This document shows positions 7,843-46,208 of a DNA stretch of 64,000 nucleotides, piece by piece. The DNA is from Armatimonadota bacterium (lineage in GTDB: Bacteria; Armatimonadota; UBA5829): the NCBI GenBank assembly GCA_012522575.1, contig JAAYKE010000067.1:383-64382 (forward strand). The letters run 5' to 3'. How positions within the stretch are numbered: the stretch's first letter is position 1; each line of letters opens with the position of its first letter. Made by a program: the position numbers and the translations under genes. The notes under the pieces are model-generated. The model worked only from the letters and a program-made list of their open reading frames with translations. It did not search any database and was not told the DNA's origin.

Positions 7843-9075
7843 TCAAGCTTTCTCCAGCTCGAACGCCCTGTGCAGCGCTCTTACAGCGTTTTTGACCTGA
7901 TCTCTGGTGATAAGACAGGTGATTCGGATCTCACTCGTCGTTATGGACAAAATGTTAATCTCTGCTTTGGCAAACGCCGTAAACATTTTTTCTGCATAGC
8001 CGGGATTGCTGCGTATTCCGCTGCCGACAATAGACACCTTGGCCACGTTTTGGTCAACCACGACATCTCGCGCTTTGATTTCTTTTGTGACAGGCTCGAT
8101 CGCTTTCTTCGCTTTTTCGAGGTCAGCGTCCTGCACCGTAAACGAGACGTCAGCCAGGCCTTCAGCGCCCACGTTCTGCACGATTACGTCAACGTTGATG
8201 TTCGACGCCGCCAGCGTGCTGAATATCTTCGATGCGATTCCGGGCTGATCCGGCACTCCGCTCACGCTGATTCGCGTCACATCGGTATCATGAGCAATCC
8301 CTCTTACCGGGTTGCGGACTTCCATTTCGTGGTCCTCCTTTTTAATCAGGGTTCCGGGAACGTCCTTTGTGCTGTTGGCAACAAGGATATCGACATCGTA
8401 TAGTTCTCCGAGTTCGACCGCCCTCGAGTGCATCACGCGCGCGCCCTGACCGGCCATCTCCAGCATCTCTTCATAGCTGATCGAATCGAGCTTCCTGGCC
8501 TCGGTCTCCACTCGAGGATCGGCAGTGTAAACCCCGTCAACATCTGTAAATATCTCACATTTATCCGCTTTGAGAGCTGCAGCAAGGGCTACCGCAGTTG
8601 TGTCCGAACCGCCGCGGCCAAGCGTGGTAATATCCGCCCAGCTTGCATTTTCTGTGATCCCCTGGAATCCTGCGACAACTACCACGTTCTTTTTGTTGAG
8701 TTCCTCGCGGAGTCGCTTTACATCTATCTTAAGAATCCTGGCTCTGCCTGCAGTGCGCTCGGTGATAATCCCCGCCTGACCGCCCGTCAACGAGACCGCT
8801 CCCAGACCCAGTTTGTGTATTGCCATCGCCAGCAGCGCGCTTGATGCCTGCTCACCGGTAGCCAGCAGCTTGTCCATTTCACGTTCGTCGGGAATAAAGC
8901 AAAGCTGCCTGGCCATGCTGATAAGCTCGTCGGTAGTATCACCCATAGCCGAAACGACCACCACCACGCTGGCTTCTTTGGCCCGCTCGGCTACCCGCTT
9001 CGCTACTGCAGCGATCTTTTCGGTTGTTGCGACTGAACTGCCGCCGTATTTTTGGACAACTATCACCTGGTCCAA
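7843..9075 (-). CDS. lysC: Aspartate kinase (two C-terminal ACT domains)
   Basis: VVQKYGGSSV N-terminal kinase motif and full aspartokinase architecture. The true start is probably the GTG giving MIVVQKYGG a few codons inside the track start. Confidence 0.9.
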   Translation of the reverse strand: MDQVIVVQKYGGSSVATTEKIAAVAKRVAERAKEASVVVVVSAMGDTTDELISMARQLCFIPDEREMDKLLATGEQASSALLAMAIHKLGLGAVSLTGGQAGIITERTAGRARILKIDVKRLREELNKKNVVVVAGFQGITENASWADITTLGRGGSDTTAVALAAALKADKCEIFTDVDGVYTADPRVETEARKLDSISYEEMLEMAGQGARVMHSRAVELGELYDVDILVANSTKDVPGTLIKKEDHEMEVRNPVRGIAHDTDVTRISVSGVPDQPGIASKIFSTLAASNINVDVIVQNVGAEGLADVSFTVQDADLEKAKKAIEPVTKEIKARDVVVDQNVAKVSIVGSGIRSNPGYAEKMFTAFAKAEINILSITTSEIRITCLITRDQVKNAVRALHRAFELEKA

Positions 9076-9212: not shown

Positions 9213-9983
9213 CTACCAACTGTAAATATGCAGCCCCGAACCCAGCAAATTGACGCCAATGAATGTGATAAGAACACACAGAAAACCGATGATCAGCAGC
9301 CTGTTGGCCCATTTGTCCCGTCTGCGGCTGACAATTCGGACGTGCAGATAGGCGGCATATATCAGCCAGGTGATCAGCGACCACGTTTCCTTTGGGTCCC
9401 AGTTCCAATATGAATTCCATGCCGTCTGCGCCCACAGCGACCCGGTGATTATACCCAAAGTCAGCATAGGAAACCCTATCGAAACCATTTTGTAGGCGAA
9501 TCGATCTGCCACATCAAGTGACGGCAGACGCCGCTGAATAACGTTTATGCGCTTTGTTTTGAGCATACGCGCCTGGATCGCATACACCACCGCCGAGCCG
9601 AAAGCAAGCGTGAAGCCGCTGTATCCGAGCAGGCATGTGATAGTGGGGACGGCATTCCAATGACTCTGCAAAGCAGGCAGCAGAGCCGCGTTGATGCTGC
9701 CCGGCAGAGACGACGCCACAACTATCAAACAAGCCGACACAAGCGTGGCAAACGCTCCAAGCGCGGGCATCCTGAACCGTCGCTCCATCAGCAAATATAA
9801 CCCTGTCAGCGTCCAGGAAATAAACATCAGCGACTCGGCAAGGTTGATAATTGCCACCCTGTGTGCATGCGCGCAGTCGAGCGCAATGGCGACGCCCTGA
9901 GCCACCAGGCCAAGCGCAGCCAGCAGACTCGCCCAGCGAGAGACGCGGTCGGCTCCGCCTGCGATACTCCATAGATACAACAC
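9213..9983 (-). CDS. HemX-like cytochrome c assembly family membrane protein (CcsA paralog directly downstream of hemA)
   Basis: 256 aa, multi-TM, with a WNWDPKETW (WWD-like) motif. Its position after hemA mirrors Bacillus hemA-hemX. Confidence 0.65.
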   Translation of the reverse strand: MLYLWSIAGGADRVSRWASLLAALGLVAQGVAIALDCAHAHRVAIINLAESLMFISWTLTGLYLLMERRFRMPALGAFATLVSACLIVVASSLPGSINAALLPALQSHWNAVPTITCLLGYSGFTLAFGSAVVYAIQARMLKTKRINVIQRRLPSLDVADRFAYKMVSIGFPMLTLGIITGSLWAQTAWNSYWNWDPKETWSLITWLIYAAYLHVRIVSRRRDKWANRLLIIGFLCVLITFIGVNLLGSGLHIYSW

Positions 9984-10018
9984 CGCCGCGCACGTATATG
10001 ATATTAGAGCAATGTCGA

Positions 10019-11350
10019 CTATGATGGCTTTTTGTCCCCTTGATTGCTTGCCTGAACCGAATCAGGCGGATTTTCCTCCGGAGTCTCCACGCGACATATT
10101 CCGAACAGATCGCAGACCATATCGAGCTTTTCGGAGGAGTCATCGTGCCCGGCGTAGTCTTTGATCTGTATCATCGGAGTGTGACATATCCTGTTTACTA
10201 TCGAGCGGGTGGTCAGGTTGATCAACTCAAGGTCTTCTCGTGAAAGATGTCTGAGCCTGTCGCGAAGCCTGTCGGTTTCCCGCTGCCGGATGTCCTCGAA
10301 TTTTTCACGCAGCGCACTAATAACGGGCACCGCGTCGAGTGTCCTGAATTTAATCATAAATTCAGCAACCTCCAGGCGCACGATCTCCTCGACCTTTTGC
10401 ACCTCCGCGCGACGCTCTTTGGCGTGCGCCTCGACGGCGGCCTGCAGATCGTCGATATTATAGACAAATACGCCATCGAGCAAATCGACATCGGCCTCGA
10501 TATCACGCGGAACCGCGATATCCACAAAAAACAGCGGCCTGCCTCGACGCGCCTTCATCGCCGACAACACCATTTCACGATCGATAATCGGCTCGGCTGC
10601 GCCGGTCGAGGTGATTACGATATCAGCCGATATCATAGCCGACTGCAGTTGGCTGAATTCCACCGCCTGGCCGTTGAATCTCTCAGCAAGATCAATCGCC
10701 TTCTGGTGAGTTCGATTTGCCACCAGCACCGCCGATGCTCCCGATGCCGTGAGGTGGGTAGCAGTAAGCTCTCCCATTTTCCCCGCGCCCACAAGAAGCA
10801 CGCTGCGGCCCTTCAATTCATCAAATATGGATCTGGCAACTCCAACCGCCACCGAGCCAATGGAGAACGCGCCTCGTCCGATTTCCGTTTCGGTTCGCGC
10901 TCTTTTGCCCACGGAAATCCCCTGTTGAAACAGGCCGCCGAGCAGGGTATGAGCCGACGATGCAGCGGTCGCCGCCGCGTATGCGCTTTTCACCTGTCCC
11001 AATATCTGAGCTTCTCCAAGCACCATCGAATCGATCCCTGAGGCGACCCTGAACAGGTGCTCTATTGCCTTGTGTCCGGCACGGGAGTATAAAAAAGGTT
11101 GGAAGTCCCCGGCGGGAACCGAGAAAAAGGAGCTCATCCACTCGATGATAACCTCATCATCTGCCCTCGAAGGAGTATATGCGTAGACTTCCGTGCGGTT
11201 GCATGTGGAGAGGATGACGCACTCCAACACCGCATCGCGCGATGCCAGGTCACGGTGCGCATCGGGAAGCTGACCGTCGGATATGCTCAGTTTTTCCCGA
11301 AGCTCGACCGGAGCGGTAGTATGATTGAGGCCGATGACTACAAGATGCAC
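10019..11350 (-). CDS. hemA: Glutamyl-tRNA reductase
   Basis: 443 aa with MHLVVIGLNHTTAPVELREKL and the catalytic CNRTEVY motif, plus an NADPH-binding GAGKMG. Confidence 0.92.
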   Translation of the reverse strand: MHLVVIGLNHTTAPVELREKLSISDGQLPDAHRDLASRDAVLECVILSTCNRTEVYAYTPSRADDEVIIEWMSSFFSVPAGDFQPFLYSRAGHKAIEHLFRVASGIDSMVLGEAQILGQVKSAYAAATAASSAHTLLGGLFQQGISVGKRARTETEIGRGAFSIGSVAVGVARSIFDELKGRSVLLVGAGKMGELTATHLTASGASAVLVANRTHQKAIDLAERFNGQAVEFSQLQSAMISADIVITSTGAAEPIIDREMVLSAMKARRGRPLFFVDIAVPRDIEADVDLLDGVFVYNIDDLQAAVEAHAKERRAEVQKVEEIVRLEVAEFMIKFRTLDAVPVISALREKFEDIRQRETDRLRDRLRHLSREDLELINLTTRSIVNRICHTPMIQIKDYAGHDDSSEKLDMVCDLFGICRVETPEENPPDSVQASNQGDKKPS

Positions 11351-31909: not shown

Positions 31910-32035
31910 ACTACTGATAAAGGCAAACCTCGGGAAACCGGGGGGCGCAAAGCTATCGGGACTAAGCCGGGCAGCAAGGGTGGTCCATAAAATACCCGTT
32001 CTGAATGCCGCCACGGTATGTTGGCCGAGCCGCCG
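31910..32035 (+). promoter_or_regulatory. Candidate c-di-GMP-I (GEMM) riboswitch aptamer in the 5' leader of the small ORF / URO-D-family gene
   Basis: AAGGCAAACC-UCGG-GAAA-CCGG-GGGGCGCAAAGCUAUCGGGACUAAGCCGGGC is near-colinear with the Vibrio Vc2 core GGGCAAACC-AUUC-GAAA-GAGU-GGGACGCAAAGCC. It contains a GNRA-capped P1 hairpin and a CUAAG tetraloop-receptor-like element. It lies ~160 nt upstream of the ATG at 32194. Confidence 0.5.
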
Positions 32036-32193
32036 AAGTAGGAGTTGCCCGTGACCAGAGACTGTCGGATTCAGACTATCCGGCGAAAGGCCCAGATACT
32101 ATGGGCTGGCCAAATGCGGCGGTCTTTGATCTCAGGCGATTCGCCTTAGGTGGCTCGGCTTCTTTGCATTACCGTTATTTGGAGGCGAAGAAA

Positions 32194-32388
32194 ATGTTTA
32201 TTCCCGAAGCAAAGAACTACCTTGGCAAAGACTGCGCAGTCACTTTCAGTGACAGACACGGAAAGGTGCATACCCAAACCCTGCACATCCACGACGTGAG
32301 CTTCGTGCCGATGTATGGCGCGTGTTTAGTCGGCGATATCGACGACATCTGGCTTGATCGGGTGACCAAAATCACCGCTGTAGTGTAG
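32194..32388 (+). CDS. Small hypothetical protein (64 aa) with a strong RBS
   Basis: GGAGG 8 nt upstream of ATG gives MFIPEAKNYLGKDCAVTF.... The longer track ORF 32005..32388 would start inside the putative riboswitch. Confidence 0.4.
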   Translation: MFIPEAKNYLGKDCAVTFSDRHGKVHTQTLHIHDVSFVPMYGACLVGDIDDIWLDRVTKITAVV

Positions 32389-32568
32389 CAAAGGCTATCA
32401 AGGAGGTGGTCGCAGACAGGAACTGACCCACAGTTTAATAGAGCGCATAACTTACAATCTCTCTGTGGCCCGGCCATAGCCGAAAATCAACTCGGCAGGC
32501 CGGGCTTATTTTTGTAATATCTGGAGGAAGCCGCATTTTGGCGGGGAAGAATATAGCAGAGGCGAGAT

Positions 32569-33660
32569 ATGACACCACGAGAAAATCTGCTGGCTTGTTT
32601 GAATCACAAAACACCGCAATGGGTCCCCAGAAGCGGCTCATTTACTCCCTATCAGATTCGACAGTTCAAAGAGAGAACGGGAGAGAGCGATATTGCGGCA
32701 TATTTTGGGATGGATAATCTGGGAGGCATTGGCCTCGGCCCGACCAGGCGCAGAGTCGATTTCTCCAGTTATCACAAATATTATGTTCTGCCGGATCATA
32801 TATCGGAGTATCGCATAGATGAATGGGGGGTGGGATGGGTTCCGGGATCGCTGCTTCATTTTGAGGATATGATCCACCCGATGCATTCCCTTGACAGCCT
32901 TGCGGAGTTTGAGGCGTATCCATATCCCGACCTTGACGCAGCGTATCGACTGGACGGAGTGCGTGAGCGCGTGAGGGAACTGCACGACCTGCAACTGCCT
33001 GTGATAGCATATCCGCTTCAGCTCGGAGGGACGATCTTTGAGAGTGCGTGGTATATGCGCGGGCTGGAAAACTTGCTGACCGATATGCTTTGCAACACTC
33101 AAATCGCTGCATATCATCTGGATCGGCTGACGCAAATGGCCATATCCAACGCGGCTTTTCTGGCCGAATGCGGGTCGGATGTGTTTATTTCAGGGGATGA
33201 TATCGCCACGCAGCGCGGCATGATGATAAGCCCTGAAATGTGGAGAGAATGGCTCAAGCCGCGTTTGGCAAGCATATATGAGGCGGCCAGATCAAAAAAG
33301 CCGGATATACAGATATGGTACCATTCCGACGGCGATTGTCGGGAGGTTATACCGGACCTCATTGAGATCGGAGTCACCATACTAAACCCGGTGCAGCCGG
33401 AGTGTATGGACCCGGCGTGGGTTAAGCGCGAATATGGCCGTGACCTGGCCTTGTGAGGAACTATCGGCACACAGACAACCATGCCGTTCGGCACGCCATC
33501 TGATGTGCGAGAGACGGTTAAGAGGATGATTGATCAGTGTGGGATCGACGGCGGCTTGTTCATCGCGCCGACCCACGTGATCGAGCCGGATGTACCGTGG
33601 GAGAATATCGTGGCTTTATATGATGCCTGCCGCGAATTCGGTGGTGATCCGAAAAGATAA
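32569..33660 (+). pseudogene. URO-D-family (MtaA/CmuA-like methyltransferase / uroporphyrinogen-decarboxylase-family) gene interrupted by an in-frame TGA at 33454-33456. The same frame continues for 68 more codons to a TAA at 33658-33660
   Basis: Track ORF ends ...YGRDLAL*. Downstream in-frame translation GTIGTQTTMPFGTPSDVRETVKRMIDQCGIDGGLFIAPTHVIEPDVPWENIVALYDACREFGGDPKR is the conserved C-terminus of this family. The TGA sits where homologs have Trp (L-x-F-W-G-G-x-D-T-Q). Confidence 0.6.
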
Positions 33661-33984: not shown

Positions 33985-34875
33985 TCAGGGGGATTTTGCT
34001 GTGAATGTCTCGATTAATCGTACGGGATGGTATGATTGCTTGGCTTTGCGCAGGCCGGGGATTCCGAGGTCCTGCTCCCGGTTGACGTATTTATATGACT
34101 GCGCCTCTGCCTTGCAGAATTCATTGTTGATAAGTTGATACAGGCCGTCGATTTGCGTGTGGGCTTTCTCCGCGTGAATGACCAGAGTATCGTCGTTCAG
34201 TTTTTCTCCCAGCGAGAAAGCGACGATCGCTCCACCGGCGCGAATTGCTCCGCCCACTATGCCGAGTGAGTCGAAATTGGTGAGCATCTGGTTCACCGCG
34301 CACCGCTCTTTGCGCAGACCCTCGATTGTCTCGCACATCTTATGCTCGCACCACAAATCAGCGAAAGCCTCGCACTCGACAGCCACCGACTCATCCATTT
34401 TCACATATTCATACTCTATCTGAGACCTGGCTCGCGCAATGAAGTTTCGCTTGCCGTCGAATCTGCGCCCGGCAAGCTCGATCAGGTCCTGCGCGGCGTA
34501 GACGTAGTCCGAATTGTCGGGATCATACTCGACTATAAGCCCTATATCTTTCATCTCACCGCCCGCTTCGCCGGATATGCGCTCGAATATCACGGGACGG
34601 TCGCTGCGGCGGATCATCTCCTCGACAACCGGCTTAATCGAGCCGACGCCCAGCGGCTCAAGGCTGGAAATGTGCTCATTTTGGTTGTTGATCAGCAAAA
34701 TGTGGTCGTATATGCGGGATAGCTCCGTTTGCTGAGACTCGCGCCAGGCGAATATATTGGTGAAGCTGTACGCGGAGATCTCCGTCGGCCTTTGTGCAAA
34801 GACCGCATCGAAGAAGGGCTTATCTCGCAGAGTTATTTGTCTTGATTGTGGATATTCAGGAATCATATTCATCAA
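33985..34875 (-). CDS. DUF2156 domain protein (homolog of the C-terminal lysyl-transferase domain of MprF/LysX)
   Basis: 296 aa. Family assignment is from overall pattern recall, so it is moderately confident only. Confidence 0.45.
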   Translation of the reverse strand: MMNMIPEYPQSRQITLRDKPFFDAVFAQRPTEISAYSFTNIFAWRESQQTELSRIYDHILLINNQNEHISSLEPLGVGSIKPVVEEMIRRSDRPVIFERISGEAGGEMKDIGLIVEYDPDNSDYVYAAQDLIELAGRRFDGKRNFIARARSQIEYEYVKMDESVAVECEAFADLWCEHKMCETIEGLRKERCAVNQMLTNFDSLGIVGGAIRAGGAIVAFSLGEKLNDDTLVIHAEKAHTQIDGLYQLINNEFCKAEAQSYKYVNREQDLGIPGLRKAKQSYHPVRLIETFTAKSP

Positions 34876-35647
34876 AAATGCGCCAGCGCATAATCTTCAC
34901 CGGCACATTGAACCATTTTCTTTTTGAGCCTGCCGGGGCCTTTCTCACTACAACTTTTCCATCTACCGGACTGGCCTCTATCCAACGCTCGTCTCCATAA
35001 TATATCATAACGTGTTTATCGTCGGCGACGGCCATATCTCCGACCTTGATCGTATTTGTATCGAATCCCGCCAGTTTTTCGGCGCTGCCTATCAGCCTTG
35101 TATACCCGTATTTATCCTGAGCTATATCTTTTGCGTCGATATCGCGCCACCAAAACGACCACAACTTTCTGCCCAACAACTGAGGATTGACTTCCTTTGC
35201 TCCCTGCCGCACCATAGCGTGCCATAGCGCGGCCCTCGCAAGCCCGGCGGAGTCAATTCCGATATCTGTCTCGCCGTTGACCTGATATGGAGTTCCGACA
35301 AACGCCCGCAATCGTTTATAGTAGACCTGCCGAAGCGCATCGGTGTCAGGTGGCTTGCTGCCAAGCACTGCCCAAACCACAAAGAGCGCGCTGAAAAATA
35401 CCGTCGGCCACACAGCCGCGTTTCTTTTGCCTATGCCGGAAAACAGGTAAACAAAACCGGTGAATATGCAGCTAAGCAGCGTCAAGACAAGCAGCAATCT
35501 TATCTGAGCGGTCATAGGAAAAATGCGTACGCCAATGCCGCACATCAGCAGCAATACGCCCGTTACTATCGCGCACAATACCTTGACGCTGATCTGTCGC
35601 GTAGTCTGTGTTTCGCCAGTTTCGGATTCAATTATATCGACCATCAA
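34856..35647 (-). CDS. Membrane-anchored NlpC/P60-like (C40 peptidase fold) protein with Ser in place of the catalytic Cys
   Basis: Two N-terminal TM helices, then GIDSAGLARAALWH (canonical DCSGLV) and GDMAVADDKHVMIYYG (canonical His box). Confidence 0.5.
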   Translation of the reverse strand: MMVDIIESETGETQTTRQISVKVLCAIVTGVLLLMCGIGVRIFPMTAQIRLLLVLTLLSCIFTGFVYLFSGIGKRNAAVWPTVFFSALFVVWAVLGSKPPDTDALRQVYYKRLRAFVGTPYQVNGETDIGIDSAGLARAALWHAMVRQGAKEVNPQLLGRKLWSFWWRDIDAKDIAQDKYGYTRLIGSAEKLAGFDTNTIKVGDMAVADDKHVMIYYGDERWIEASPVDGKVVVRKAPAGSKRKWFNVPVKIMRWRIFDEYDS

Positions 35648-35683
35648 AATATCTACGATCCGCCCGCGCCCATTGTTCCAATA

Positions 35684-36265
35684 TCACTTCGCCAGAGACG
35701 CGATAATACCTTCGGCTGTGTCGATGGAAACCCTTTGTCTCCAATACTTATCCTTGAGCAGCGCAGCATCATGGGAATTGGTCAAAAACCCGATCTCCAG
35801 CAGCACGGAGGGCATATAACGATATGTATCGCGCAGGACTCTGAGGCGGGAATACTGGCTCTGCGAGTCCCATTTTGCTCCCCGGTTGCGCAAATCGTGT
35901 TTTGCCAGTCGATTGACGAGTTGTTGAGCGATTGCATAGCTTCGCCTGTCCCCTTCCGCCACAAAAGCCTCCACTCCGTTTGCGGTCGCCGGCCCTGCGT
36001 TTATGTGGATGGAAACAAACAAATCGCAGTCGGCCTCTACTGCTTTCTTTCCACGTGATTCCAGGGTCACGAGCCTGCTATCCGGCCTGGTCACAATCGT
36101 TTTGATTCCGGCCAGGCGAATATTATGACCGATTCTGATGACAAAATCCAGGGCAAGCTCGTCCTCCACAAGGCCATTTGCCGCGCATCCGGTGTGGTGC
36201 AGACCACGATTTGCACCGTGGCCTGCATCGAGCGCGATTATGCGATTGTTGTCCTTCGCATTCAC
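35684..36265 (-). CDS. N-acetylmuramoyl-L-alanine amidase (Amidase_3 catalytic domain, no signal peptide; endolysin-type)
   Basis: IIALDAGHG, TRPDS, VSIHINAG and LLEIGFLTNSHD motifs. The start was reassigned to a GTG after a GGAGGT RBS (MNAKDNNRIIALDAGHG). The track ORF to 36688 over-extends. Confidence 0.75.
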   Translation of the reverse strand: MNAKDNNRIIALDAGHGANRGLHHTGCAANGLVEDELALDFVIRIGHNIRLAGIKTIVTRPDSRLVTLESRGKKAVEADCDLFVSIHINAGPATANGVEAFVAEGDRRSYAIAQQLVNRLAKHDLRNRGAKWDSQSQYSRLRVLRDTYRYMPSVLLEIGFLTNSHDAALLKDKYWRQRVSIDTAEGIIASLAK

Positions 36266-36270
36266 GCTGA

Positions 36271-36597
36271 TTACCTCCGAACCCTCTTCCACTGCTGATA
36301 TACGTGCTCGACCAGCAGGTTTGCGATGCTCTGCGGCACTGGAAAACCAAGCTCGGCTATGCATATCTTCTGAAGATAGATGACCGCCTGCTGGCGACGT
36401 TCGTCTGAGGACAATTCCGCTATCGCCCCCGCCCGTTCGATGGCGTCGGTGATTCTCTTTGCGCCGATCCTCTTTAGCCATTTGCGCGCCCAGCTCGGCA
36501 GCCTGTCCTTCTGGCTCAAATATGTGGTCAGCGCGCCCGTCACGCCGAGAGCAAGCGTAACCCAATCCCGGGTAGAAACAGTATCGAGTGTGATCAT
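36271..36597 (-). CDS. Putative holin-like small membrane protein (single N-terminal TM)
   Basis: 108 aa with WVTLALGVTGALTTYL hydrophobic segment. Its stop abuts the amidase start. The call rests on position only. Confidence 0.3.
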   Translation of the reverse strand: MITLDTVSTRDWVTLALGVTGALTTYLSQKDRLPSWARKWLKRIGAKRITDAIERAGAIAELSSDERRQQAVIYLQKICIAELGFPVPQSIANLLVEHVYQQWKRVRR

Positions 36598-36692
36598 ATA
36601 GGCTCCTTATATTATAGTTGATTGTGGGTTCTTGATTCTGAGGAGAGTGACGGCCCGCGAACCGCCGCCGATAAGTCCGGTTATCCAAATGC

Positions 36693-36992
36693 TTAATTGA
36701 GAATGGCGATTCTCACGACCGGTTCGCCGGCTATGCGGTGGACGGCGGTTTTGAGGACGGCATAGGTGCGGCCGTCGCGTGTCAGGGTATCTCCCACGCC
36801 TATGACTACATCCGGCGTTGTGGCCAGCATAAGAGCAGGATGAGTTATGCCCATTCGTTCGATATCATCCAAATACAGGCTCATATTGCCCGTATCGAGG
36901 AGCTTGAACATCCCGGCTCCGGTATTGCCGTTAATTACATATTCCTCCCCGAAACGCCGGAGCTTTTCGGCGAACCGCTCGGCAAATCGCAT
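36693..36992 (-). CDS. Phage head-closure / head-tail joining-like protein
   Basis: 99 aa. Its size and sequence pattern resemble the HK97 gp7-like head-tail joining family. Translationally coupled to the connector gene (GAGGTG-TAG-CAG-ATG). Confidence 0.4.
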   Translation of the reverse strand: MRFAERFAEKLRRFGEEYVINGNTGAGMFKLLDTGNMSLYLDDIERMGITHPALMLATTPDVVIGVGDTLTRDGRTYAVLKTAVHRIAGEPVVRIAILN

Positions 36993-36995
36993 CTG

Positions 36996-37427
36996 CTACA
37001 CCTCCTCTTTGATGCTGAATATAGGCTCTGCATCAGCGGTTGTGCTGGAGCAATGCGTCTCGGAGTCCATCGGCATGGCGCTTTTAAGATACGGAGCCAG
37101 CCGCGCGTGGCCTTGCCGAGTCAGGTCGACTCCGGATACTCCTGATGGCCCGATGGTGACTCCCGCCACGCCGAACTGCTCGGTTGCGCCGGTCTCTCTG
37201 CGCATCTGCTCGATGAATTCACCGGTTATGATTTCGAGAATCCCCAACTTGAGCGTGCCCTGCAACCCTGCGTTGAGCGTGTCGTTAAGATACATATCCG
37301 CGATGGAGTATTCGATCGGAGCCTGCATCTCGGAAATGAGCGCGGCTATAGCCGTATCGTAGTCAGTTACTGCGGAGTCAATGCCTGCTTTGCGCTTGAT
37401 ATCTGCGACAGTCAGGGTAATCGCCAT
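36996..37427 (-). CDS. Phage gp6-like head-tail connector protein
   Basis: The N-terminus MAITLTVADIKRKAGIDSAVTDYDTAIAALISEMQAPIEY matches the Phage_connect_1 pattern. Confidence 0.5.
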   Translation of the reverse strand: MAITLTVADIKRKAGIDSAVTDYDTAIAALISEMQAPIEYSIADMYLNDTLNAGLQGTLKLGILEIITGEFIEQMRRETGATEQFGVAGVTIGPSGVSGVDLTRQGHARLAPYLKSAMPMDSETHCSSTTADAEPIFSIKEEV

Positions 37428-37436
37428 TTGCGCCTC

Positions 37437-37802
37437 CTATCCGTAAAATGAGATATGAATCGTATCGTCTTGCCCTCCCTGCACGGGAGTGAAATCATCG
37501 ACGTCCAGGATCGCATAATACACCGTAGTCCCCTCCGGCACATCGTCGTCAATTGAATGCAAATCCGACAGAATATAGGCTGCATTGGATATGCTGATCG
37601 GGTCTTTGTAACCAATAATCAGCAACACATTAGAGATCGTTCTTGCGCTGAAGAACAAGCGAAAACGGGTTCCTCCGGTCACCTGGAAGCTGCCGTCGCT
37701 TTCTCCATCGAGGGAGTGCACCAGACCGCCGGTTCGCGTCCTGGCATCTCCGCCGGATGCGATATGCACCGCCACCGGCATTATATTTTTCAGATTGTTC
37801 AT
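37437..37802 (-). CDS. Hypothetical phage structural protein
   Basis: 121-aa ORF located between the capsid and connector genes. Confidence 0.3.
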   Translation of the reverse strand: MNNLKNIMPVAVHIASGGDARTRTGGLVHSLDGESDGSFQVTGGTRFRLFFSARTISNVLLIIGYKDPISISNAAYILSDLHSIDDDVPEGTTVYYAILDVDDFTPVQGGQDDTIHISFYG

Positions 37803-37909
37803 CGTATGGCTCTCCGCTTTGGGTCTTTGTTATATGGAGTCAGAAGTCTGGGTGACGATTCGCAAACCGCCACCCGTGGTGTTATTTTTCAGCTTCATTG
37901 CTGTGGCTG

Positions 37910-38817
37910 TCAGCTCACCTGGCTGCCGTAGGCCATCTGCCAGAGGCCATAGCCGGTGTTATACCGGGCGCGCACGCCATAGACAAACTCATCCCGCATA
38001 AACCCGCTCTCCGAATCCGCTTCGAGGGCCGCAAACTCAACCGGGGTTCGGCTCTGGAGGATGATCGGCTTGACGACACCTTTAGTCGAAAGCACAAACC
38101 AGTCGTTGACATCGGTCAGATATGGCGAGACAAGCAAATCGAGTTTGCCTTTGAGCACGTTTGAAGCGGCTCTTGATGTCGTGGAACCCTCCTCCGGCCA
38201 ATATGAACTCTCCAGAAGTTCCATAGCAACCCACTGCATATCCGGCGGCACTACCAGCAAATCCGGAGTTACTCCCATCAATTTGCCGCGGTCATCTCGA
38301 TATTTCATCATCGCGGTAATCGCGCTCTGCAACGCGGAAGCGGATAATGCTGCGGTTCCCTTGTTCGATTGAGACCCGGAATCCCCCTCGGAGTGATCTG
38401 TAGCAAAGAACGCCTAGCCGTCGTAGCACTTGCCGGTGAATCCGTTTTTGAGCAGGCCGAACGCTAGTTCGTCCATGTGCCTTTTCGCCTCGCGGGCCAG
38501 CGACACCACCCGCAGCTTGATCTGGCCATATTTATCGTCCTCTATGGCCGCCCTCTCGATGGCTATCGAGGACTCCCAGGTCTTGTTGCGTATCGAATAA
38601 TCGTGTTCGAGCAAGCCCAGCGGCATGCGCTCGTCGACGAACTCCCGAATTGCAGGAACCGCACCCAGCCAGGAATAAGTTTCCTGATCTGACCCGGAGC
38701 TTATCACTGTTGCGATGCGGGAATGTTCGCCGGCGGTGGCATCAAGGGCCTCGAAGAATACGGTTTTAAGCCCATCCTCAAGCAGTTTGGGCATATCTGA
38801 TCTTGTAAGCGGCATAT
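37910..38817 (-). pseudogene. Mu gpT-like major head (capsid) protein gene containing an in-frame TAG at 38414-38416. The N- and C-terminal halves are called as separate ORFs in the track
   Basis: Track ORFs 38414..38890- and 37910..38332- are in the same frame (84-nt gap, no other stop): ...GFTGKCYDG*AFFATDHSEGDSGS...LQSAITAMMKY.... Mu-gpT hallmarks are YSWLGAVPAIREF, CYDG-x-FFATDH, VVKPIILQS, FMRDEFVYGVRAR and GYGLWQMA. The likely real start is MPLTRSDMPKLL after an AGGAG RBS. Confidence 0.6.
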
Positions 38818-38967
38818 TTTTCTCCTGTTTGGATGTGATTGGTTGATGGTTGGCTGCGCATGCGGACGGACGATGATCTGCCCGTCGCATTCCAAAGCAG
38901 CCTCAAAGCAGAAAGCCCGGCGCTGAGAACACCGGGCCGATAGATGATATTGCACTGGCAGGCGAAC

Positions 38968-39576
38968 CTACTCCAGCGATAACTCTCCGATTTGGCTTAT
39001 GCCTTCGTTGTCGACATATTTGACCGCTATTTCGAAGGCCTGCTGTGGTGAAATGGGTTCAAATGAATGCACCATGATGTTCATTTGCACCGTGCGCGTG
39101 TGGTCGCCGATTTTCTGCAGCATGCGAATGCCTCTCAGCAGTTTTGCGCCTCGTCTGCGGTAGAATTCTATGCGCCGACGTGCGATATCTGCATCCGGCG
39201 AGTCCTCCGGCACTTCCACCTCGAAGACCACGAATTTCGCACCGCTTTCCTTTGCTCGTCTTACCACCTCGTCGTAGCACACTGCCCCAACTCCGCTGCC
39301 CCGCAGCGCCGGCAAAGTGGCGAGATACCAAAGCGCAAAGGCATTTATTTCGGGCTTGGTGCGATAAAACATAAGCCCGGCAAACTCCCCGCGCTCGTCC
39401 AATGCGGCGATCAGCCGACTTTCCACCCCGTCTTCCTTGATATCCGGGTTGAGGAACCGAAAAAAACCGGAAACCAGTATCTTCTCTTCGGGAGGAAACG
39501 CGGTCTCATACAAATCGAGCCAGGGCATAAAAAGAGCGTCGTTGATATCGGTTATTTCATAAAAAGTAATCTTCAT
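38968..39576 (-). CDS. GNAT-family N-acetyltransferase embedded in the capsid module
   Basis: 202 aa with an acetyl-CoA binding region (LATLPALRGSGVGAVCYDEVVRRAKESGAKFVVFEV). Confidence 0.65.
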   Translation of the reverse strand: MKITFYEITDINDALFMPWLDLYETAFPPEEKILVSGFFRFLNPDIKEDGVESRLIAALDERGEFAGLMFYRTKPEINAFALWYLATLPALRGSGVGAVCYDEVVRRAKESGAKFVVFEVEVPEDSPDADIARRRIEFYRRRGAKLLRGIRMLQKIGDHTRTVQMNIMVHSFEPISPQQAFEIAVKYVDNEGISQIGELSLE

Positions 39577-39611
39577 ACCGATTTTTTCGGCATCAATTGC
39601 TCTATTACCTG

Positions 39612-40028
39612 CTAGGCGGCATACCTGTCGATTCTGATCCTCACCGCAGTGGCGGATATGGACTCGACTGCGAACCCGGCGGTAATATTGGCCGTGGTTG
39701 CGGCATCGGTGACGGTCTGATTGTCCACGATATGGAACCCCACGCCCACATCGGTCTGAGCGCCGTTCGCGCCGCCGTCTACAAATACAAACGTGCCGGT
39801 GGTCTGGACGCGAATGCCGATATCCCCTGCGCTGCCGCCGGAGTTGTCTACGGTCTCATAGGCGACTCCGGCGAATGTTTCGGATGCGGTGTCGCTCGCG
39901 TTGGTCGCATAGCCGCTGGCGTTGATATTCACCAGCGCGCCTTTGGGAATTTTCACATTTGCCATAGGATAGCAGATGATCGCCCCATCCTTTCTTTTGG
40001 ACTCCCTGGCTGTGGTGGTTGCTGTCAT
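39612..40028 (-). CDS. Hypothetical Gly/Thr-rich phage structural protein (possible decoration/scaffold-associated)
   Basis: 138-aa ORF with beta-rich composition, located between the protease and capsid genes. Confidence 0.3.
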   Translation of the reverse strand: MTATTTARESKRKDGAIICYPMANVKIPKGALVNINASGYATNASDTASETFAGVAYETVDNSGGSAGDIGIRVQTTGTFVFVDGGANGAQTDVGVGFHIVDNQTVTDAATTANITAGFAVESISATAVRIRIDRYAA

Positions 40029-40044
40029 AAGATTCTCCTTTCCG

Positions 40045-40758
40045 TTATCTGCTCCTGTATTTTTCTACCAGCCCGCTGGTCACGCCGAGCTTTGCATACA
40101 ACTCCGGCTCTTCGACTTCCCCGGCTGCAGGCGCGACCTCCGAAAACTCAATCACCTTTGGCTGAGATTCCAAAAACCATCTGAAAACCTGAGAGATCGG
40201 AGTCGGTCGGTCGGCAAATGCGATTGTGTCGGAATCCTGCGAGCATAAAATAGCCCTTGCAAAGACCTCCGCTGCGGGCGCAATTTTGCCGCTTCTTTTT
40301 AGCTGATCTATGGCAATTTGCGCATCTTTTTCGGCTACTTCGCGGCGCAGAGCTTCATCGGAACTGCCAAATACCGAGCTGAGTTCTCCGTCGAGCCGAA
40401 CGCAATCCGCCTCCCCGAACACGGCAGCATCGGCTATCCTCGGCTCACGAACAAGGGATACCTCAGATATCCGGCTCTTGTCCTTGACAATGGCCACCGA
40501 AAGCCGTCTTGCGTTGGCAGATTTGACCAGTTCCCAGGCTGCTTTGGTAAAACACAGCCTCCCGAAAAGCTCCTTGCCTTTACGATAAACGTTTTTCAGC
40601 ACCCCAAGCGCGCCATCAAAAGGCGTCGAGGAGTGCTCAATGCGCAGCGGCGCATCGGATGTGTTGGCAATGATTCGATCGAGGTCCTCCTCGGTGATCT
40701 CAATGCCTCGATCCGGATAGCTGCCCGCCTCAAACAATTTAGCCTCACGTTCGATCAC
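40045..40758 (-). CDS. Mu gpI-like prohead protease / scaffold protein
   Basis: 237 aa. The N-terminus LFEAGSYPDRGIEITEEDLDRII resembles Mu-like prophage protein I, and its position after the portal gene fits. Confidence 0.4.
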   Translation of the reverse strand: MIEREAKLFEAGSYPDRGIEITEEDLDRIIANTSDAPLRIEHSSTPFDGALGVLKNVYRKGKELFGRLCFTKAAWELVKSANARRLSVAIVKDKSRISEVSLVREPRIADAAVFGEADCVRLDGELSSVFGSSDEALRREVAEKDAQIAIDQLKRSGKIAPAAEVFARAILCSQDSDTIAFADRPTPISQVFRWFLESQPKVIEFSEVAPAAGEVEEPELYAKLGVTSGLVEKYRSR

Positions 40759-40830
40759 AATTACCTCCTGAATTTGTTTGCATGTGAGAAATATATGGCA
40801 GTCCCATACGCTTTTATGTTCCGTGTAAAA

Positions 40831-42015
40831 CTAGCTCGGCAGACCCAGATATCCCCTGATCCACTCCTCGTCAGGCTTGATAATCTGCCCGCTCACCAGT
40901 TTTCCGATGACCTCCGCAAGCCCGGCGACATCCGCATCCTCCAGCGGCCCAAGGCTGAAGGTTGGATAGGATTTTGTCGAGAAATTGAAGTCAACCAGAC
41001 GCTTTATGACCTGCTCACGCATGACGGCTTCCTCAAGGTCGCGTTTGAGCTTATGCAGGCACATCTTGAGCACGTCGAGATGCACCTTTGCGAGCGCGTA
41101 GCTGCCCACTCGAATGCCCTCGTCGGTCATCAGCGTCTGGCAGAGAATTGCGCGGGATATCTGCTTGTCGTGCCATTCGATGGCCTGCAAATACCCCGAT
41201 TCCCCGCCACGTCCGGCCTCCAGCAGTTCCACCTGCACGTCATCCGGGATGACGATGGCGGTCTGCTGCTGAATCTTGTCCAGCACTCGCAGCAGTTCTT
41301 CCTGCGCCTGCTTCGGAGTTCCGCGCTTGTAGGAGCCTTTAGCGGTCGGGGAGCCGTGCTTCTCCAGATACAGATTCATAAACCGGGTGAGCACGTCTTT
41401 GCTCCAATAGTGCTTATATGCGGCGCGCAGATCCGATGTGCCGTAGGGGGATTCATACCTGGGCATGTGCGAATATATCACGAACTTATCCGATGGAAGC
41501 GTCCGCTCGACCGAGGCTGTCCCCGTCCGCTTCAACGCCCGCACGTTCATAAACTCATCGACCTCAAAGGAAAAAGTCGACGGGTCCTTTGCCTTTATGG
41601 AAGCGATTCCCACGCGACCTTTATGGGGGCCGTCCTCGAAAATGCTATAGTTGATTTCCAGTATGGAAAAGCCCTTTGCCAGCGCATCGAGCACATTGTA
41701 TAGCACGGTCAGTATCGAGCCGCGCATATCCGCCAGCGCAAAACGCACGAAGTCCGCGACCTCCACATCCTGCGGATCGCGCGTCGCCGGGTGCACCTCC
41801 CATCCGTGCGATAAAACCGCAAGTTTTTTGATAGTCAAACACGCCTGCACCTGAGCGTCGCGCTGCATTTGTTCATATATTGCATAACCTCTTCTGCCGA
41901 TCAGGTCATCGGGGTTGTATGAGTCGATATCGTTAATCAAAGACCCGGCAGCGGCCGTCTCATTCAGCCCGGGAGAACGCCGCTTGCTGAACCGGGAAAG
42001 CAGTGGAATCTTCAT
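40831..42015 (-). CDS. Phage portal protein (DUF935 / Mu gp29-like)
   Basis: 394 aa with a DUF935-like pattern, located immediately downstream of terL. GAGGTG RBS. Confidence 0.55.
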   Translation of the reverse strand: MKIPLLSRFSKRRSPGLNETAAAGSLINDIDSYNPDDLIGRRGYAIYEQMQRDAQVQACLTIKKLAVLSHGWEVHPATRDPQDVEVADFVRFALADMRGSILTVLYNVLDALAKGFSILEINYSIFEDGPHKGRVGIASIKAKDPSTFSFEVDEFMNVRALKRTGTASVERTLPSDKFVIYSHMPRYESPYGTSDLRAAYKHYWSKDVLTRFMNLYLEKHGSPTAKGSYKRGTPKQAQEELLRVLDKIQQQTAIVIPDDVQVELLEAGRGGESGYLQAIEWHDKQISRAILCQTLMTDEGIRVGSYALAKVHLDVLKMCLHKLKRDLEEAVMREQVIKRLVDFNFSTKSYPTFSLGPLEDADVAGLAEVIGKLVSGQIIKPDEEWIRGYLGLPS

Positions 42016-42066
42016 AAAACACCTCGGGTTTGGACGTTGGAAATTGGTTGTTGGAAGTTGGGCGGT

Positions 42067-43386
42067 CTACCAGCTTTGCCTTGCCATTCTGCCGGCCTGA
42101 CTCAAATATGCGGAATTGTGCGCAAACCCTTCGGTCTGTTTGCAGGCCAGCGCGAGGGCGATCACCAGGTCGTCGTTGATACCGACCCTGCCGTTCATAC
42201 GCACATTGCCGGAGGCGGTCAGCTCGTATTCATAATATTGAAGCTCCCGCAGAAGCTGCTCGTCGGGTAGAATGGTGATCGAACGGTGCGCGAACTTGAG
42301 GGACAAATGCTCTATCAGATCTCGTTTGGATCGGTTTGAGAATGTATAGCCCTCCACCGCCACATCGATGCCGAAGTCCCATAACCTGGCGCGAAGCTGT
42401 TCGAGCAGGGGATCCCCTATCGAAGTAGAATCGGCGAGCGCGCAACTCACTCGATGGGTTTTGAGGAACTGCGCAACCCTTGTGATCTGGCTGTCCCAGC
42501 CCATTTTATTGAACCTGTCGATGCCGATTATGTGGCAGCCGCGTTCATCCGATACCATCGCGACCACGGCGGTATAGTCCGAATATCTCGCCCAGTCTAT
42601 TCCCGCCACCACCACGCCGTCCGCGTCCGCTGCGTGCGAATCGGAGACCGCCGCCTCGATGTCCTCCCATGCAAAAACGCAGTTGGAATCGTCGATAAAC
42701 TGCGCCTCATATTCCACCGCAAACTGCCTCGGACTGATCTCCTGCCGCTGAGTTTCGATATATTGACGACTTATATGCGGGTTTGCCCACGATGGAAAGT
42801 TGAATGACCGGCACGCCGCGCCGTCATCAGACCCTGCGCCCCTCATAAATGCGCGATAGAAATGATTCCTGCCAAATGGAGTGCTGATCATAACCAGCCG
42901 ACCGTTGCGATCGGCAAGCATAGGGGAAATGACCTCGCTTATAACGGAGTCCCGAACAAACGCGGCCTCATCGACTATCACCCTGTCTGCGGAATGTCCG
43001 CGCAGATTGCGCCCATCCTCATCGGCGGTGCGCGCCATTATCAGGCTGCTGCCGAGAGCAAGCCTCGGATAGGGAGTGCGCGTGATTTTGGTGATGCCGC
43101 GAGTGAGCCGCGAGCCTGTCATCAGTCGTTCGATATGATCGAAGATGAGCCTGGATTGATCGTAAGTCGGGGAGACTATGATCTGCTTTGAGCCGGGATG
43201 CAAAATGGCGAGGGTGGCGGCGTCCACCGCGGCGGCCTCGGTTTTACCCCATCGACGCCCGCAGGATGCCACCTTAACTCCCGCATCGGTCAGCAGCCAT
43301 TTCTTCTGTGTTTCGTGCGGTTTCCATCCCCAGATATGATCGGCCAGCGTCAGGCGAACCGATGAATCAGTCCCCGCGGGCATTGT
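42067..43386 (-). CDS. terL: Phage terminase large subunit
   Basis: Walker A CGRRWGKTEAAA plus a C-terminal RNaseH-like nuclease region. The start was set to the internal Met (MPAGTD), and the gene overlaps terS. Confidence 0.75.
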   Translation of the reverse strand, partial: TMPAGTDSSVRLTLADHIWGWKPHETQKKWLLTDAGVKVASCGRRWGKTEAAAVDAATLAILHPGSKQIIVSPTYDQSRLIFDHIERLMTGSRLTRGITKITRTPYPRLALGSSLIMARTADEDGRNLRGHSADRVIVDEAAFVRDSVISEVISPMLADRNGRLVMISTPFGRNHFYRAFMRGAGSDDGAACRSFNFPSWANPHISRQYIETQRQEISPRQFAVEYEAQFIDDSNCVFAWEDIEAAVSDSHAADADGVVVAGIDWARYSDYTAVVAMVSDERGCHIIGIDRFNKMGWDSQITRVAQFLKTHRVSCALADSTSIGDPLLEQLRARLWDFGIDVAVEGYTFSNRSKRDLIEHLSLKFAHRSITILPDEQLLRELQYYEYELTASGNVRMNGRVGINDDLVIALALACKQTEGFAHNSAYLSQAGRMARQSW

Positions 43387-43744
43387 CGCCCTCCGTTTTG
43401 TCGTGAATGGCTTTGACCATATCGACCAGAGCCGCCCCGGGATCCTCACTTTCGGCATCGAAAACCCCGCTCACTTTAAGCACATCGACGAGAACCTTGG
43501 TGTCCGGTTTGTCCGGATTGGACGCCAACTGACACAGCCGAGCGGCCGAGTTCACCACTGCCTGCCGCGCTATCCTTTTGGCCCCGAGTTCCTGCTCACG
43601 CTCACGAACCCTCAAAGCGCGCGCAAAACGATCCGATTCCATCCAACCTCTTAAAGTAGAAAGACGCACCCCGATCATTTCAGCCACAACCGTATCGGGA
43701 TGACAAAGAAGCAACTCGATTGCATCACGATGTTTAGCCCTCAT
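43367..43744 (-). CDS. Putative terminase small subunit / HTH DNA-binding protein
   Basis: 125 aa with an HTH (VAEMIGVRLSTLRGWM), directly upstream of and overlapping terL. AGGAGG RBS. Confidence 0.45.
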   Translation of the reverse strand: MRAKHRDAIELLLCHPDTVVAEMIGVRLSTLRGWMESDRFARALRVREREQELGAKRIARQAVVNSAARLCQLASNPDKPDTKVLVDVLKVSGVFDAESEDPGAALVDMVKAIHDKTEGDNARGD

Positions 43745-43938
43745 TAACCCTCCTTTCGATGGAGACTATCGCTCCCATAATTACAAGGCGTCAAATGAGG
43801 CCCTTTGCGGCTAACAATAGGCGATGTTTTGGTGAATGTTGATTCATTATTTGCGCAGCGGAGCGGATCGCAAATCTCCATCATCGCCAGCCGCCGACTA
43901 TGGTATACTGAATCAACTTTCCCTCGAGAGGACACGCA

Positions 43939-44727
43939 ATGACACAGGCACGCATAATGTATGATATGACCGTAAAAGAAGTGCTCGATGGCCTGGAGCA
44001 GACTCGCACGGTGATTTTGCCGGTGGGCATAGTCGAGCAGCACGGCTACCACCTGCCTTTGAGCGTAGACATCCACAATGCGCAGCAGATCGCGATAAGA
44101 ACTTCGCAGGCCACGGGCTGTTTCGTGGCTCCGACTGTGCATTACAATTTCTCCGGCGGCACTCTGCCCGGCACAATTAACATCAGCCCGGCCGTCTTTT
44201 CGCTGCTGTTGTGCGAGATTATGCAGAGCCTTCAGATGCAGGGTTTTCGAACAATAATAATCCTGCTTGGACACGGCGGCACGGAAAGCATCGCTGCGGC
44301 GCGCGATGCGGCGGATTATTTCCAGCGCCTGCGGCCGGAAGCGGACGGCCTTACCGTTCATCTTGTGCCGTTCTGGGAACTGTCGGAAACGTATATGAAA
44401 TCCTTTGAGGAACACGACTACCACGCCGGCAAATATGAAACCTCGATGATGCTCTACTGGAAGCCGGAGTTAGTAAAGATGGATCAGGCTAAGCTGGATG
44501 ACCCCGATGAACTGGAAAAAGCGCGGGCGGATCAGGATGCGTATGCCAAGAAATCTGAGCGCACCCAAAGCAGGTATGAGGTTGCCAGAATAACCCAGAA
44601 TCCGGCGCTTAAAGTGGGAGTATTCGGCGACTATCACGGATCAAGCGCGCAATTCGGCAAGCAGATATGCGACGAATGCGTGGCGAGCCTGTCCGCGCTT
44701 GTTGAAGAATTGAAACCGGATCAATGA
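43939..44727 (+). CDS. Creatininase-family amidohydrolase
   Basis: LPVGIVEQHGYHLPLSVD and GHGG motifs of the creatinine amidohydrolase family. An extended -10 TGGTATACT lies upstream. Confidence 0.75.
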   Translation: MTQARIMYDMTVKEVLDGLEQTRTVILPVGIVEQHGYHLPLSVDIHNAQQIAIRTSQATGCFVAPTVHYNFSGGTLPGTINISPAVFSLLLCEIMQSLQMQGFRTIIILLGHGGTESIAAARDAADYFQRLRPEADGLTVHLVPFWELSETYMKSFEEHDYHAGKYETSMMLYWKPELVKMDQAKLDDPDELEKARADQDAYAKKSERTQSRYEVARITQNPALKVGVFGDYHGSSAQFGKQICDECVASLSALVEELKPDQ

Positions 44728-46208
44728 GGGTGTGCTTTTGACGAGAGAGTCCGCCGCACTGCGTCCTGCCAGCCTCTATACAACCTGTCGGCCTGATCAG
44801 GCGGCATTTGAGGTGAAAACACCCGATCGCCGCTTCGACGTCGGGCTATATCGTCAGGGTTCCAAAAGCCGATTGCAAGACCTGCCAGACAGGCCGCGCC
44901 AAGGGAGGTAGTCTCGATTATGCTCGGACGCAGCACGTCTATGCCGAGAATATCGGCCTGGAACCGGCATACGAACTCATTTGCCGAAGCCCCGCCGTCT
45001 ATCCTCAGCTCATTGACTTCAAGCCCGGAGTCTTTGGCCATAGCGTCCAGCACGTCTTTTGTCTGATAGCACATCGCTTCAAGGGCGGCTCGCACGATGT
45101 GCCGGGAGTCGGTTGATCGGGTCAGCCCGTAAATCGACCCTCGCGCCTCCTGATCCCAATATGGCGCGCCCAACCCGGTCAGGGCGGGCACAAAATAGAC
45201 CCCTCCGGTATCGGGAACGGAAAGGGCCATGTCCTCCGATTCTGCGGCGGATGACAATATTTTTAATCCATCCCGAAGCCATTGAATGGCTGCTCCGGCC
45301 ACAAATACCGAACCTTCCAGCGCATATACAGGTCGGCCATCCTCCCCGCACGCGATGGTGACAATCAAACCGTGATCTGAATGCGGTCGGGTATCGCCGA
45401 CGTTGAGAAGAAGAAAGCTGCCGGTCCCGTAGGTGCACTTCATCGCGCCCGCAGCGCAGCATGCCTGGCCAAACAGCGCGGCCTGCTGATCCCCGGCTAT
45501 CCCGCAGATGGGAACCCCGGACGGCAGGCTGCCGATCGAATCAGTGGAGCCGAACACCCCTGATGACCGCATAACATCGGGCAGCATTTTCGCGGGGATA
45601 TTGAAAATCTCCAGCAACTCGGAGGCCCATTCGCGCCTGTCGATATCGAACAGCATTGTGCGCGAGGCATTGGTAGGGTCGGTGGCGTGAACCCGCCCGC
45701 CGGTCAGTTTCCAAAGCAGCCAGCTATCGATCGTTACGAACGCAAGCTCTCCACGCTCGGCAGAATCCATAGCCGATGGCACATTTCTCAGAATCCATTC
45801 TATATTGGTGGCCGAAAAATATGCGTCGACGGGCAAACCGGTCAGGCTCCGAATGCGGTCGCGTTTATCTTGCGGGATTTCATCGCATCTGCGCGCGGTT
45901 CTGCGGCACTGCCAGACTATAGCATTATGGATCGGCCTGCCGGTATTTTTATCCCACACCACTGTGGTTTCACGCTGGTTTGTGATGCCGATTCCCGCAA
46001 TTGAGCAATCCGGCAGTTGTCGCAGCACGCTCTCAAGCGGCGCGATCACGCTTTGCCATATTTCCTCCGGGTCGTGCTCCACGTAGCCCGGCTGCGGAAA
46101 ATGCTGCGTGAATTCGCGGTATGCGCTTGCGGCTGCGTTGCCCTCAGCGTCGTAAGCGCACACTTTTGTGCCCGTAGTGCCCTGATCTATTGCGATAATA
46201 TAGCTCAC
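44721..46208 (-). CDS. glpK: Glycerol kinase
   Basis: 495 aa with IIAIDQGTTGTK and FGGY-family sugar kinase signatures. Confidence 0.92.
   Translation of the reverse strand: MSYIIAIDQGTTGTKVCAYDAEGNAAASAYREFTQHFPQPGYVEHDPEEIWQSVIAPLESVLRQLPDCSIAGIGITNQRETTVVWDKNTGRPIHNAIVWQCRRTARRCDEIPQDKRDRIRSLTGLPVDAYFSATNIEWILRNVPSAMDSAERGELAFVTIDSWLLWKLTGGRVHATDPTNASRTMLFDIDRREWASELLEIFNIPAKMLPDVMRSSGVFGSTDSIGSLPSGVPICGIAGDQQAALFGQACCAAGAMKCTYGTGSFLLLNVGDTRPHSDHGLIVTIACGEDGRPVYALEGSVFVAGAAIQWLRDGLKILSSAAESEDMALSVPDTGGVYFVPALTGLGAPYWDQEARGSIYGLTRSTDSRHIVRAALEAMCYQTKDVLDAMAKDSGLEVNELRIDGGASANEFVCRFQADILGIDVLRPSIIETTSLGAACLAGLAIGFWNPDDIARRRSGDRVFSPQMPPDQADRLYRGWQDAVRRTLSSKAHPH

Follow-up and report, generated by a model that had tools for sequence, protein, structure and literature searches.

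The question raised by this locus is whether the TGA that interrupts a URO-D-family gene in an Armatimonadota metagenome-assembled genome (MAG) is a broken tryptophan codon, a site of recoding or a flaw of the assembled sequence. In the 64,000-nucleotide stretch of contig JAAYKE010000067.1 (assembly GCA_012522575.1) that was analysed, here called the window, both the sequence and the list of open reading frames place the TGA at exactly 33454-33456, where it closes a plus-strand frame of 295 amino acids (32569-33456) in the context ...GAC CTG GCC TTG TGA GGA ACT ATC GGC... When the translation of 32569-33660 is carried past the TGA in the unchanged frame, 67 sense codons follow before a TAA is met at 33658-33660. 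The translation after the TGA begins GTIGTQTTMPFGTPSDV and ends EFGGDPKR, and the full 67-codon segment is GTIGTQTTMPFGTPSDVRETVKRMIDQCGIDGGLFIAPTHVIEPDVPWENIVALYDACREFGGDPKR. With the Trp restored, the junction of the conceptual protein reads LAL-W-GTIGTQTTMPFGTPSDVR, and when the stop position is counted as a residue, the length of this protein is 363 amino acids. The original prediction had the unbroken frame reaching the TAA at 33658, which the translation bears out, and it let 68 in-frame codons follow the TGA; the conserved continuation stands, while the number is 67 sense codons and becomes 68 only if the stop is counted. To judge from sequence comparison, this in-frame continuation is far beyond chance, since a single Pfam URO-D match spans the stop and a homologue of 363 amino acids is 99% identical to the conceptual protein.

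The 295-residue product is identical to a GenBank entry titled 'MAG: hypothetical protein GX139_06090 [Armatimonadetes bacterium]', from which follows that the stop is present in the deposited MAG and that the gene has been annotated there as two. The second annotated product, the 59-residue hypothetical protein NLN75863.1, starts from an internal ATG at 33481. The features discussed below are collected in Table 1.

Table 1. Positions in the window of the interrupted gene, its upstream elements and the private changes that alter codons of interest
Feature	Position	Strand	Basis or remark
c-di-GMP-I riboswitch aptamer	31912-32037	+	Rfam RF01051, 64.3 bits (gathering score 35)
Conserved 64-aa ORF	32194-32388	+	Called in sister contigs; 80% identical in L008 and 70% in L011
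GC-rich hairpin with T run, terminator-like	about 32468-32515	+	Read from sequence; inner part 32491-32504 from terminator scan
First 295 codons of the URO-D-family gene	32569-33453	+	ORF list; PF01208; GenBank has a separate hypothetical protein NLN75862.1 (exact match)
Second private change in the URO-D-family gene, CGG>CTG, R128L	32951	+	All seven other contigs have G
Premature TGA in place of the codon for Trp296	33454-33456	+	G>A at 33456, private to the assembly
Last 67 codons and true TAA stop of the same gene	33457-33660	+	Translation; alignment; AlphaFold2 model
Second private nonsense, AAG>TAG, in the gene for the Mu-like gpT major capsid protein (37910-38815), codon 134	38414-38416	-	L001 and L002 read AAG (Lys)

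Consider first the column of the family alignment in which the stop falls. Among about 5.8 billion proteins searched, 6872 relatives were found, and the best of them, with 363 amino acids, covers 100% of the query at 99% identity. Column 296 is Trp in all 32 closest relatives, and when 120 relatives are taken together it contains W in 110, S in 8, A in 2 and Cys in none. The 32 closest relatives have the motif L-x-[FL]-W-G-T-I-G-T-Q-T-T around this column, and the part of the alignment that lies after the stop contains the invariant residues G297, G300, Q302, P306, G325, G328, P334, T335, H336, E339 and V342. A natural C-terminus at the position of the stop is not seen in the homologues: the conserved frame runs on, and the relatives are all single chains of 350-390 amino acids. 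The claim that the TGA sits at a conserved Trp position and breaks a URO-D-family gene therefore agrees with the reading frame, with the Pfam match and with the homologue column, in which the requisite Trp was found when the 363-codon protein was aligned. The accompanying description of the C-terminus was right in that the downstream frame is conserved, while the motif given for it, L-x-F-W-G-G-x-D-T-Q, has to be replaced by the one above.

The state of the same codon in near-identical strains is known from other assemblies. A contig of ENA assembly ERZ941572 (k127_539506; run SRR3166067, anaerobic digester) is collinear with window positions 2856-43660, 99.95% identical and free of indels, and it reads TGG, the sole difference in the codon being the G>A at 33456. 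Six more contigs, assembled from other samples and 98.4-98.9% identical, also read TGG (Logan SRR8925751-3 and ERR14141146; ENA ERZ25038406 and ERZ15184953), and the JGI protein P0122 has W at column 296. Taken together, seven sister contigs (L001-L007) with TGG and one protein with W make eight other assemblies that carry the sense codon, in accordance with the TGG-to-TGA transition originally proposed. The intact protein is on record also from the GenBank metagenome assembly LSQX01, and in the protein databases searched the 295-residue form is known only as NLN75862.1. In JGI metagenome contigs, scanned twice by exact pattern for TGR, neither allele was found. LSQX01 and ERZ941572 both belong to BioProject PRJNA283612, which concerns biogas-upgrading reactors (PMC5985405). 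Of the 64,000 positions of the window, sister sequence covers 2856-45735; within this interval, JGI contig L048 is 100% identical to positions 40829-45735. Searches for exact copies of the proteins of four further window ORFs gave no match, probably owing to another start codon or a private missense change. Differences between strains within the URO-D-family gene are nearly all at third codon positions, from which follows that the gene is functional and under purifying selection in the species. The TGA, then, is derived and, within the public data, unique to one Armatimonadota MAG.

The content of the column and the sister codons bear directly on selenocysteine, that is, on the proposal that a bacterial SECIS hairpin after the UGA makes it a Sec codon. 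An in-frame UGA flanked on either side by conserved sequence is what such a site would look like, but the column with its W, S and A residues holds neither Cys nor truncated, Sec-like homologues, and the sister strains have TGG. In addition, the 77 nucleotides at 33454-33530 fold no better than their shuffles: the minimum free energy is -18.3 kcal/mol, the mean of the shuffles -16.8 kcal/mol (z -0.54), and 56 of 200 shuffles fold at least as well. No tRNA genes were found in the 64-kb window. The original view that Sec is unlikely and that the downstream hairpin is weak is thus upheld by the absence of Cys from the column in 120 homologues and by this fold. Selenocysteine was rejected on column content and lack of downstream structure, and its probability can be set next to nil.

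To see what kind of process may have produced the TGA, the window was compared with the ERZ941572 contig over 12408-43660. The two differ at 11 positions in these 31 kb, namely 22215, 24123, 24554, 27678, 29445, 32197, 32951, 33456, 38416, 40785 and 40793, and at all 11 every other assembly that covers the site (from one to six assemblies) has the ERZ allele. All 11 changes thus fall on the branch of the window and none on that of its sister (binomial p 0.001). Nine of these private changes are coding (2 synonymous, 5 missense and 2 nonsense) and the other 2 intergenic; there are 4 transitions to 7 transversions, and four of the changes are A<->T. Natural differences in the same region, for which the ERZ contig was compared with two further strain lineages, comprise 250 synonymous and 85 missense changes and no nonsense change, with 252 transitions to 127 transversions. 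Private and natural changes differ by Fisher's test in the proportion of synonymous to non-synonymous changes (p 0.0018), in nonsense changes (p 0.0006) and in A<->T changes (p 0.0057). If substitutions were placed at random in these coding sequences, 23.8% would be expected to be synonymous, 72.7% missense and 3.5% nonsense, and the synonymous share of the private coding set, 2/9, agrees with this random expectation and not with the selected pattern. The private changes, the TGA included, therefore look as if selection had not seen them, as would be the case for very recent mutations or for consensus errors.

Two members of the private set deserve separate mention. The first is the other change in the URO-D-family gene, R128L, in a column whose residue varies across the family (Y 48, R 36 and W 21 among 120 relatives). 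With it, the 1.1-kb gene has two of 12 isolated differences (Poisson p 0.04). The second is the nonsense change in the capsid gene, which on the plus strand is a T>A at 38416, 5 kb from the TGA; the intact sister copy of this gene has a PF10124 Pfam match.

A non-standard genetic code, in which UGA would be read as Trp or Gly (tables 4 or 25), is a further rival reading. Code 4 would indeed give a UGA at a Trp position, but among 45 long non-overlapping ORFs the stop codon is TGA in 16, TAG in 15 and TAA in 14. Since TGA ends 16 of these 45 frames, the code is standard. The G+C content of 48-57%, the TGG found at the site in sister strains, and the fact that only one in-frame TGA occurs among the 11 private differences argue in the same direction. 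Codes 4 and 25 were rejected by the stop-codon usage in the window, and a reassigned UGA has a vanishingly small probability.

The possibility that the stop is read through calls for a longer argument. UGA is the stop codon most often misread by Trp-tRNA, and such basal misreading is a general property, which would give traces of full-length protein. The original prediction suggested in this sense that near-cognate readthrough could still yield full-length protein. A stronger reading is that near-cognate Trp-tRNA decodes the UGA in a functional or programmed manner, so that the strain keeps a working full-length enzyme. The stop does fall exactly on a Trp codon, as in near-cognate UGA readthrough in bacteria, and the 67 codons downstream of it are intact. 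An intact downstream frame is, however, to be expected anyway when the change is so young. In the known cases of functional UGA readthrough the stop codon is kept across relatives, whereas here it is private to one assembly, with a sense codon in the eight other assemblies and in all 120 homologues; no stimulatory structure follows the stop, as the fold reported above has it; and the private TAG that lies 5 kb away, in a gene of no relation, points to a general, unselected process. The suggestion has accordingly gained no specific support, the stop being conserved in no relative, and functional readthrough appears very improbable. The more limited proposal, that the A is real and that misreading by Trp-tRNA supplies the strain with a small yet useful amount of full-length enzyme, is just as improbable. 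If it were true, a URO-D-family enzyme linked to a c-di-GMP riboswitch would be naturally titrated down by a leaky stop.

With recoding set aside, the TGA is very probably a plain, non-programmed nonsense substitution in an otherwise intact gene under purifying selection, in which a single G>A at 33456 turns the conserved Trp296 codon TGG into a stop. It remains to ask whether the A is an error or minor-variant artefact, or a real and very young loss-of-function allele. Between these two the balance is nearly even, with a slight lean towards error because two of the nine private coding changes are nonsense. The two hits in the URO-D-family gene could, on the other hand, point not to error but to a genuine inactivation followed by relaxed selection. 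The term 'pseudogene' used at the outset fits in so far as the premature stop is derived relative to intact orthologues, but a consensus or assembly error fits a private, unselected-looking set of changes equally well. Ordinary nonsense pseudogenes and consensus errors in MAGs share all the properties seen here: one derived base, a premature stop, near-identical strains that are intact, and an annotation that yields two 'hypothetical proteins'. The case differs from these ordinary ones only in its second private nonsense codon 5 kb away, which adds to the suspicion of assembly error. No special mechanism is needed.

There is also a cluster of changes of another kind. Between 9058 and 9143, within 86 nt, the window has seven differences from the sister contig that is otherwise 99.95% identical. 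This segment covers the start of an aspartate-kinase-like gene (7843-9066, minus strand), namely its leader and first codons, and no Rfam match was found there. The cluster shows that more than noise separates the window from the sister contig.

What a nonsense substitution at codon 296 would do to the protein can be read from the AlphaFold2 model of the intact sister protein (pLDDT 95.6, pTM 0.92). In this model W296 is the end of a strand (294-296), which is followed by a loop, helices at 304-307 and 310-324, a strand at 330-332 and a helix at 344-358. Termination at codon 296 would give a product of 295 amino acids. Missing from it would be helix 7, strand 8 and the C-terminal helix, together with the loop that follows barrel strand 7. 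The product would also be without the invariant His336, a putative metal ligand that aligns with a zinc-ligand Cys of MtaA. With these last barrel units missing, the (beta/alpha)8 barrel would be unable to close and the enzyme is predicted to be dead; the truncated product should, on the model, be inactive. The annotated 59-residue downstream 'gene' would then be nothing other than the orphaned C-terminus.

A different role for this second product is conceivable, if the gene had evolved into a split one whose separate 295- and 59-residue products assemble into a working enzyme. Both NLN75862.1 and NLN75863.1 are annotated in GenBank, and the ATG at 33481 is there to start the second. The sequence before this ATG reads GCACACAGACAACC-ATG, with nothing resembling a Shine-Dalgarno sequence, and residues 296-304, among them the invariant G297, G300 and Q302, would be lost from both products; the relatives are all single chains, and the split is confined to one assembly. 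For want of a ribosome-binding site, for the loss of invariant residues and for its private nature the evolved split was rejected, and it must be regarded as very improbable.

Which enzyme the intact gene encodes is a question apart from the stop. Its sole Pfam match is PF01208 (URO-D), at 86.9 bits against a cut-off of 23.9 (E 1.8e-24, residues 108-356), and the 26 best PDB fold matches are MtaA and UROD structures, with E values from 3.5e-14 to 5e-9 and TM scores of 0.59-0.68. Both the family HMM and the (beta/alpha)8 barrel fold, by which membership of the URO-D superfamily is judged, are thus found. The MtaA/CmuA models TIGR01463, NF040654 and NF004889 give 48.9, 53.9 and 55.1 bits and fail at their cut-offs of 235.4, 400 and 244; a search of NCBIfam brought out these three MtaA-type models and no HemE model at E <= 0.01. 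The protein is a member of the URO-D superfamily that is neither a curated MtaA/CmuA nor HemE.

The relation to each of these enzymes can be made explicit. MtaA, the methylcobalamin:coenzyme M methyltransferase of Methanosarcina mazei (4ay7/4ay8), is the best sequence match (E 3e-6) and the best fold match (Foldseek E 3.5e-14, TM 0.64-0.68), with the (beta/alpha)8 barrel in common. In the sequence alignment with 4ay7, residues H252, D254 and H336 of the present protein stand opposite H246, C248 and C325, the zinc ligands of MtaA. The His ligand of MtaA thus aligns with the invariant H252, but the identity is only 18%, D254 and H336 take the places of the two Cys ligands, and there is no adjacent gene for a corrinoid protein. 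The His-x-Cys ... Cys zinc site of MtaA and CmuA is therefore not found here; residues 252, 254 and 336 instead form His252-x-Asp254 plus His336. Within the URO-D subfamily each of the three is either invariant or conserved to at least 90%, which suggests that the metal site of the subfamily is of a His/Asp/His type and not the thiolate zinc site of the methyltransferases. HemE/UROD, the uroporphyrinogen III decarboxylase (1uro, 2inf), shares PF01208 and the same fold (TM about 0.6), but the identity is 10-17%, the present protein matches no HemE model, and the elements linked to its gene are a c-di-GMP riboswitch and a 64-residue ORF, not haem genes. The label 'MtaA/CmuA-like' under which the gene was first described is hence appropriate at the level of fold and superfamily only, as neither the curated cut-offs nor the Cys zinc ligands are reached.

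The neighbours of the gene are PEMT-like, STAS, the 64-residue ORF, LPG_synthase_C and a Mu-like prophage, and no partner gene for a corrinoid protein or methyltransferase was found among them. Genes resembling hemA and sirohaem synthase occur 20 kb from the URO-D-family gene. The Mu-like prophage or phage remnant lies directly downstream of the URO-D locus, at about 34856-43750 on the minus strand, and its genes include Amidase_3, several small ORFs, the gpT capsid, Portal_Mu and Terminase_6N; the sister strains have the same element. A repeat of about 90% identity occurs at the two ends of the window, at about 3920-4130 and at 63079-63358, as secondary BLAST hits of L049, and its right-hand member (63079-63358) apparently consists of two overlapping, tandem-like copies.

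Upstream of the gene, the candidate c-di-GMP riboswitch named in the original prediction was confirmed, at the position and with the score given in Table 1. It is the sole Rfam family in the window and lies 531 nt upstream of the URO-D-family start codon. For the 64-residue ORF that follows it no match to a Pfam family was found. The same order of elements, with riboswitch, 64-residue ORF, terminator-like hairpin and URO-D-family gene, occurs in three Armatimonadota species: at 31912-33660 in the window, at 9357-11083 in the MAG contig L008 and at 9369-11086 in the MAG contig L011. In L008 the orthologue is 81% identical, which makes it the nearest match from the genome-contig scan, and the riboswitch scores 62.7 bits; in L011 the corresponding values are 66% and 59.3 bits, and the upstream distance is the same in both. 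A hairpin with a T run is found at the equivalent place in both contigs, with stem sequences that differ. MAGs named like L008 are Megahit re-assemblies of PMC7038595. For more distant homologues, eight loci were examined and none had the riboswitch. L011 has in addition a c-di-AMP riboswitch (ydaO/yuaA type, 67.3 bits) at 6059-6248 on the minus strand, 3 kb from its c-di-GMP riboswitch. Since the 64-residue ORF and the terminator-like hairpin intervene between aptamer and enzyme gene, control of the URO-D-family gene by the riboswitch is only putative; URO-D-family enzymes are not known as targets of c-di-GMP riboswitches.

The biological weight of the TGA is small, as it would at best be a loss-of-function allele, days to years old, in one biogas-reactor population. 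There is in it, all the same, a caution about data quality. The deposited MAG has private, unselected-looking base changes at a frequency of about 3 per 10 kb, which break at least two genes in 31 kb and give rise to the spurious 'hypothetical proteins' NLN75862.1 and NLN75863.1, and from this follows that in-frame stops of this assembly should not be taken as recoding. More interesting than the stop is the locus around it, where a c-di-GMP-I riboswitch, a 64-residue ORF and an enzyme with a putative His/Asp/His site occur together.
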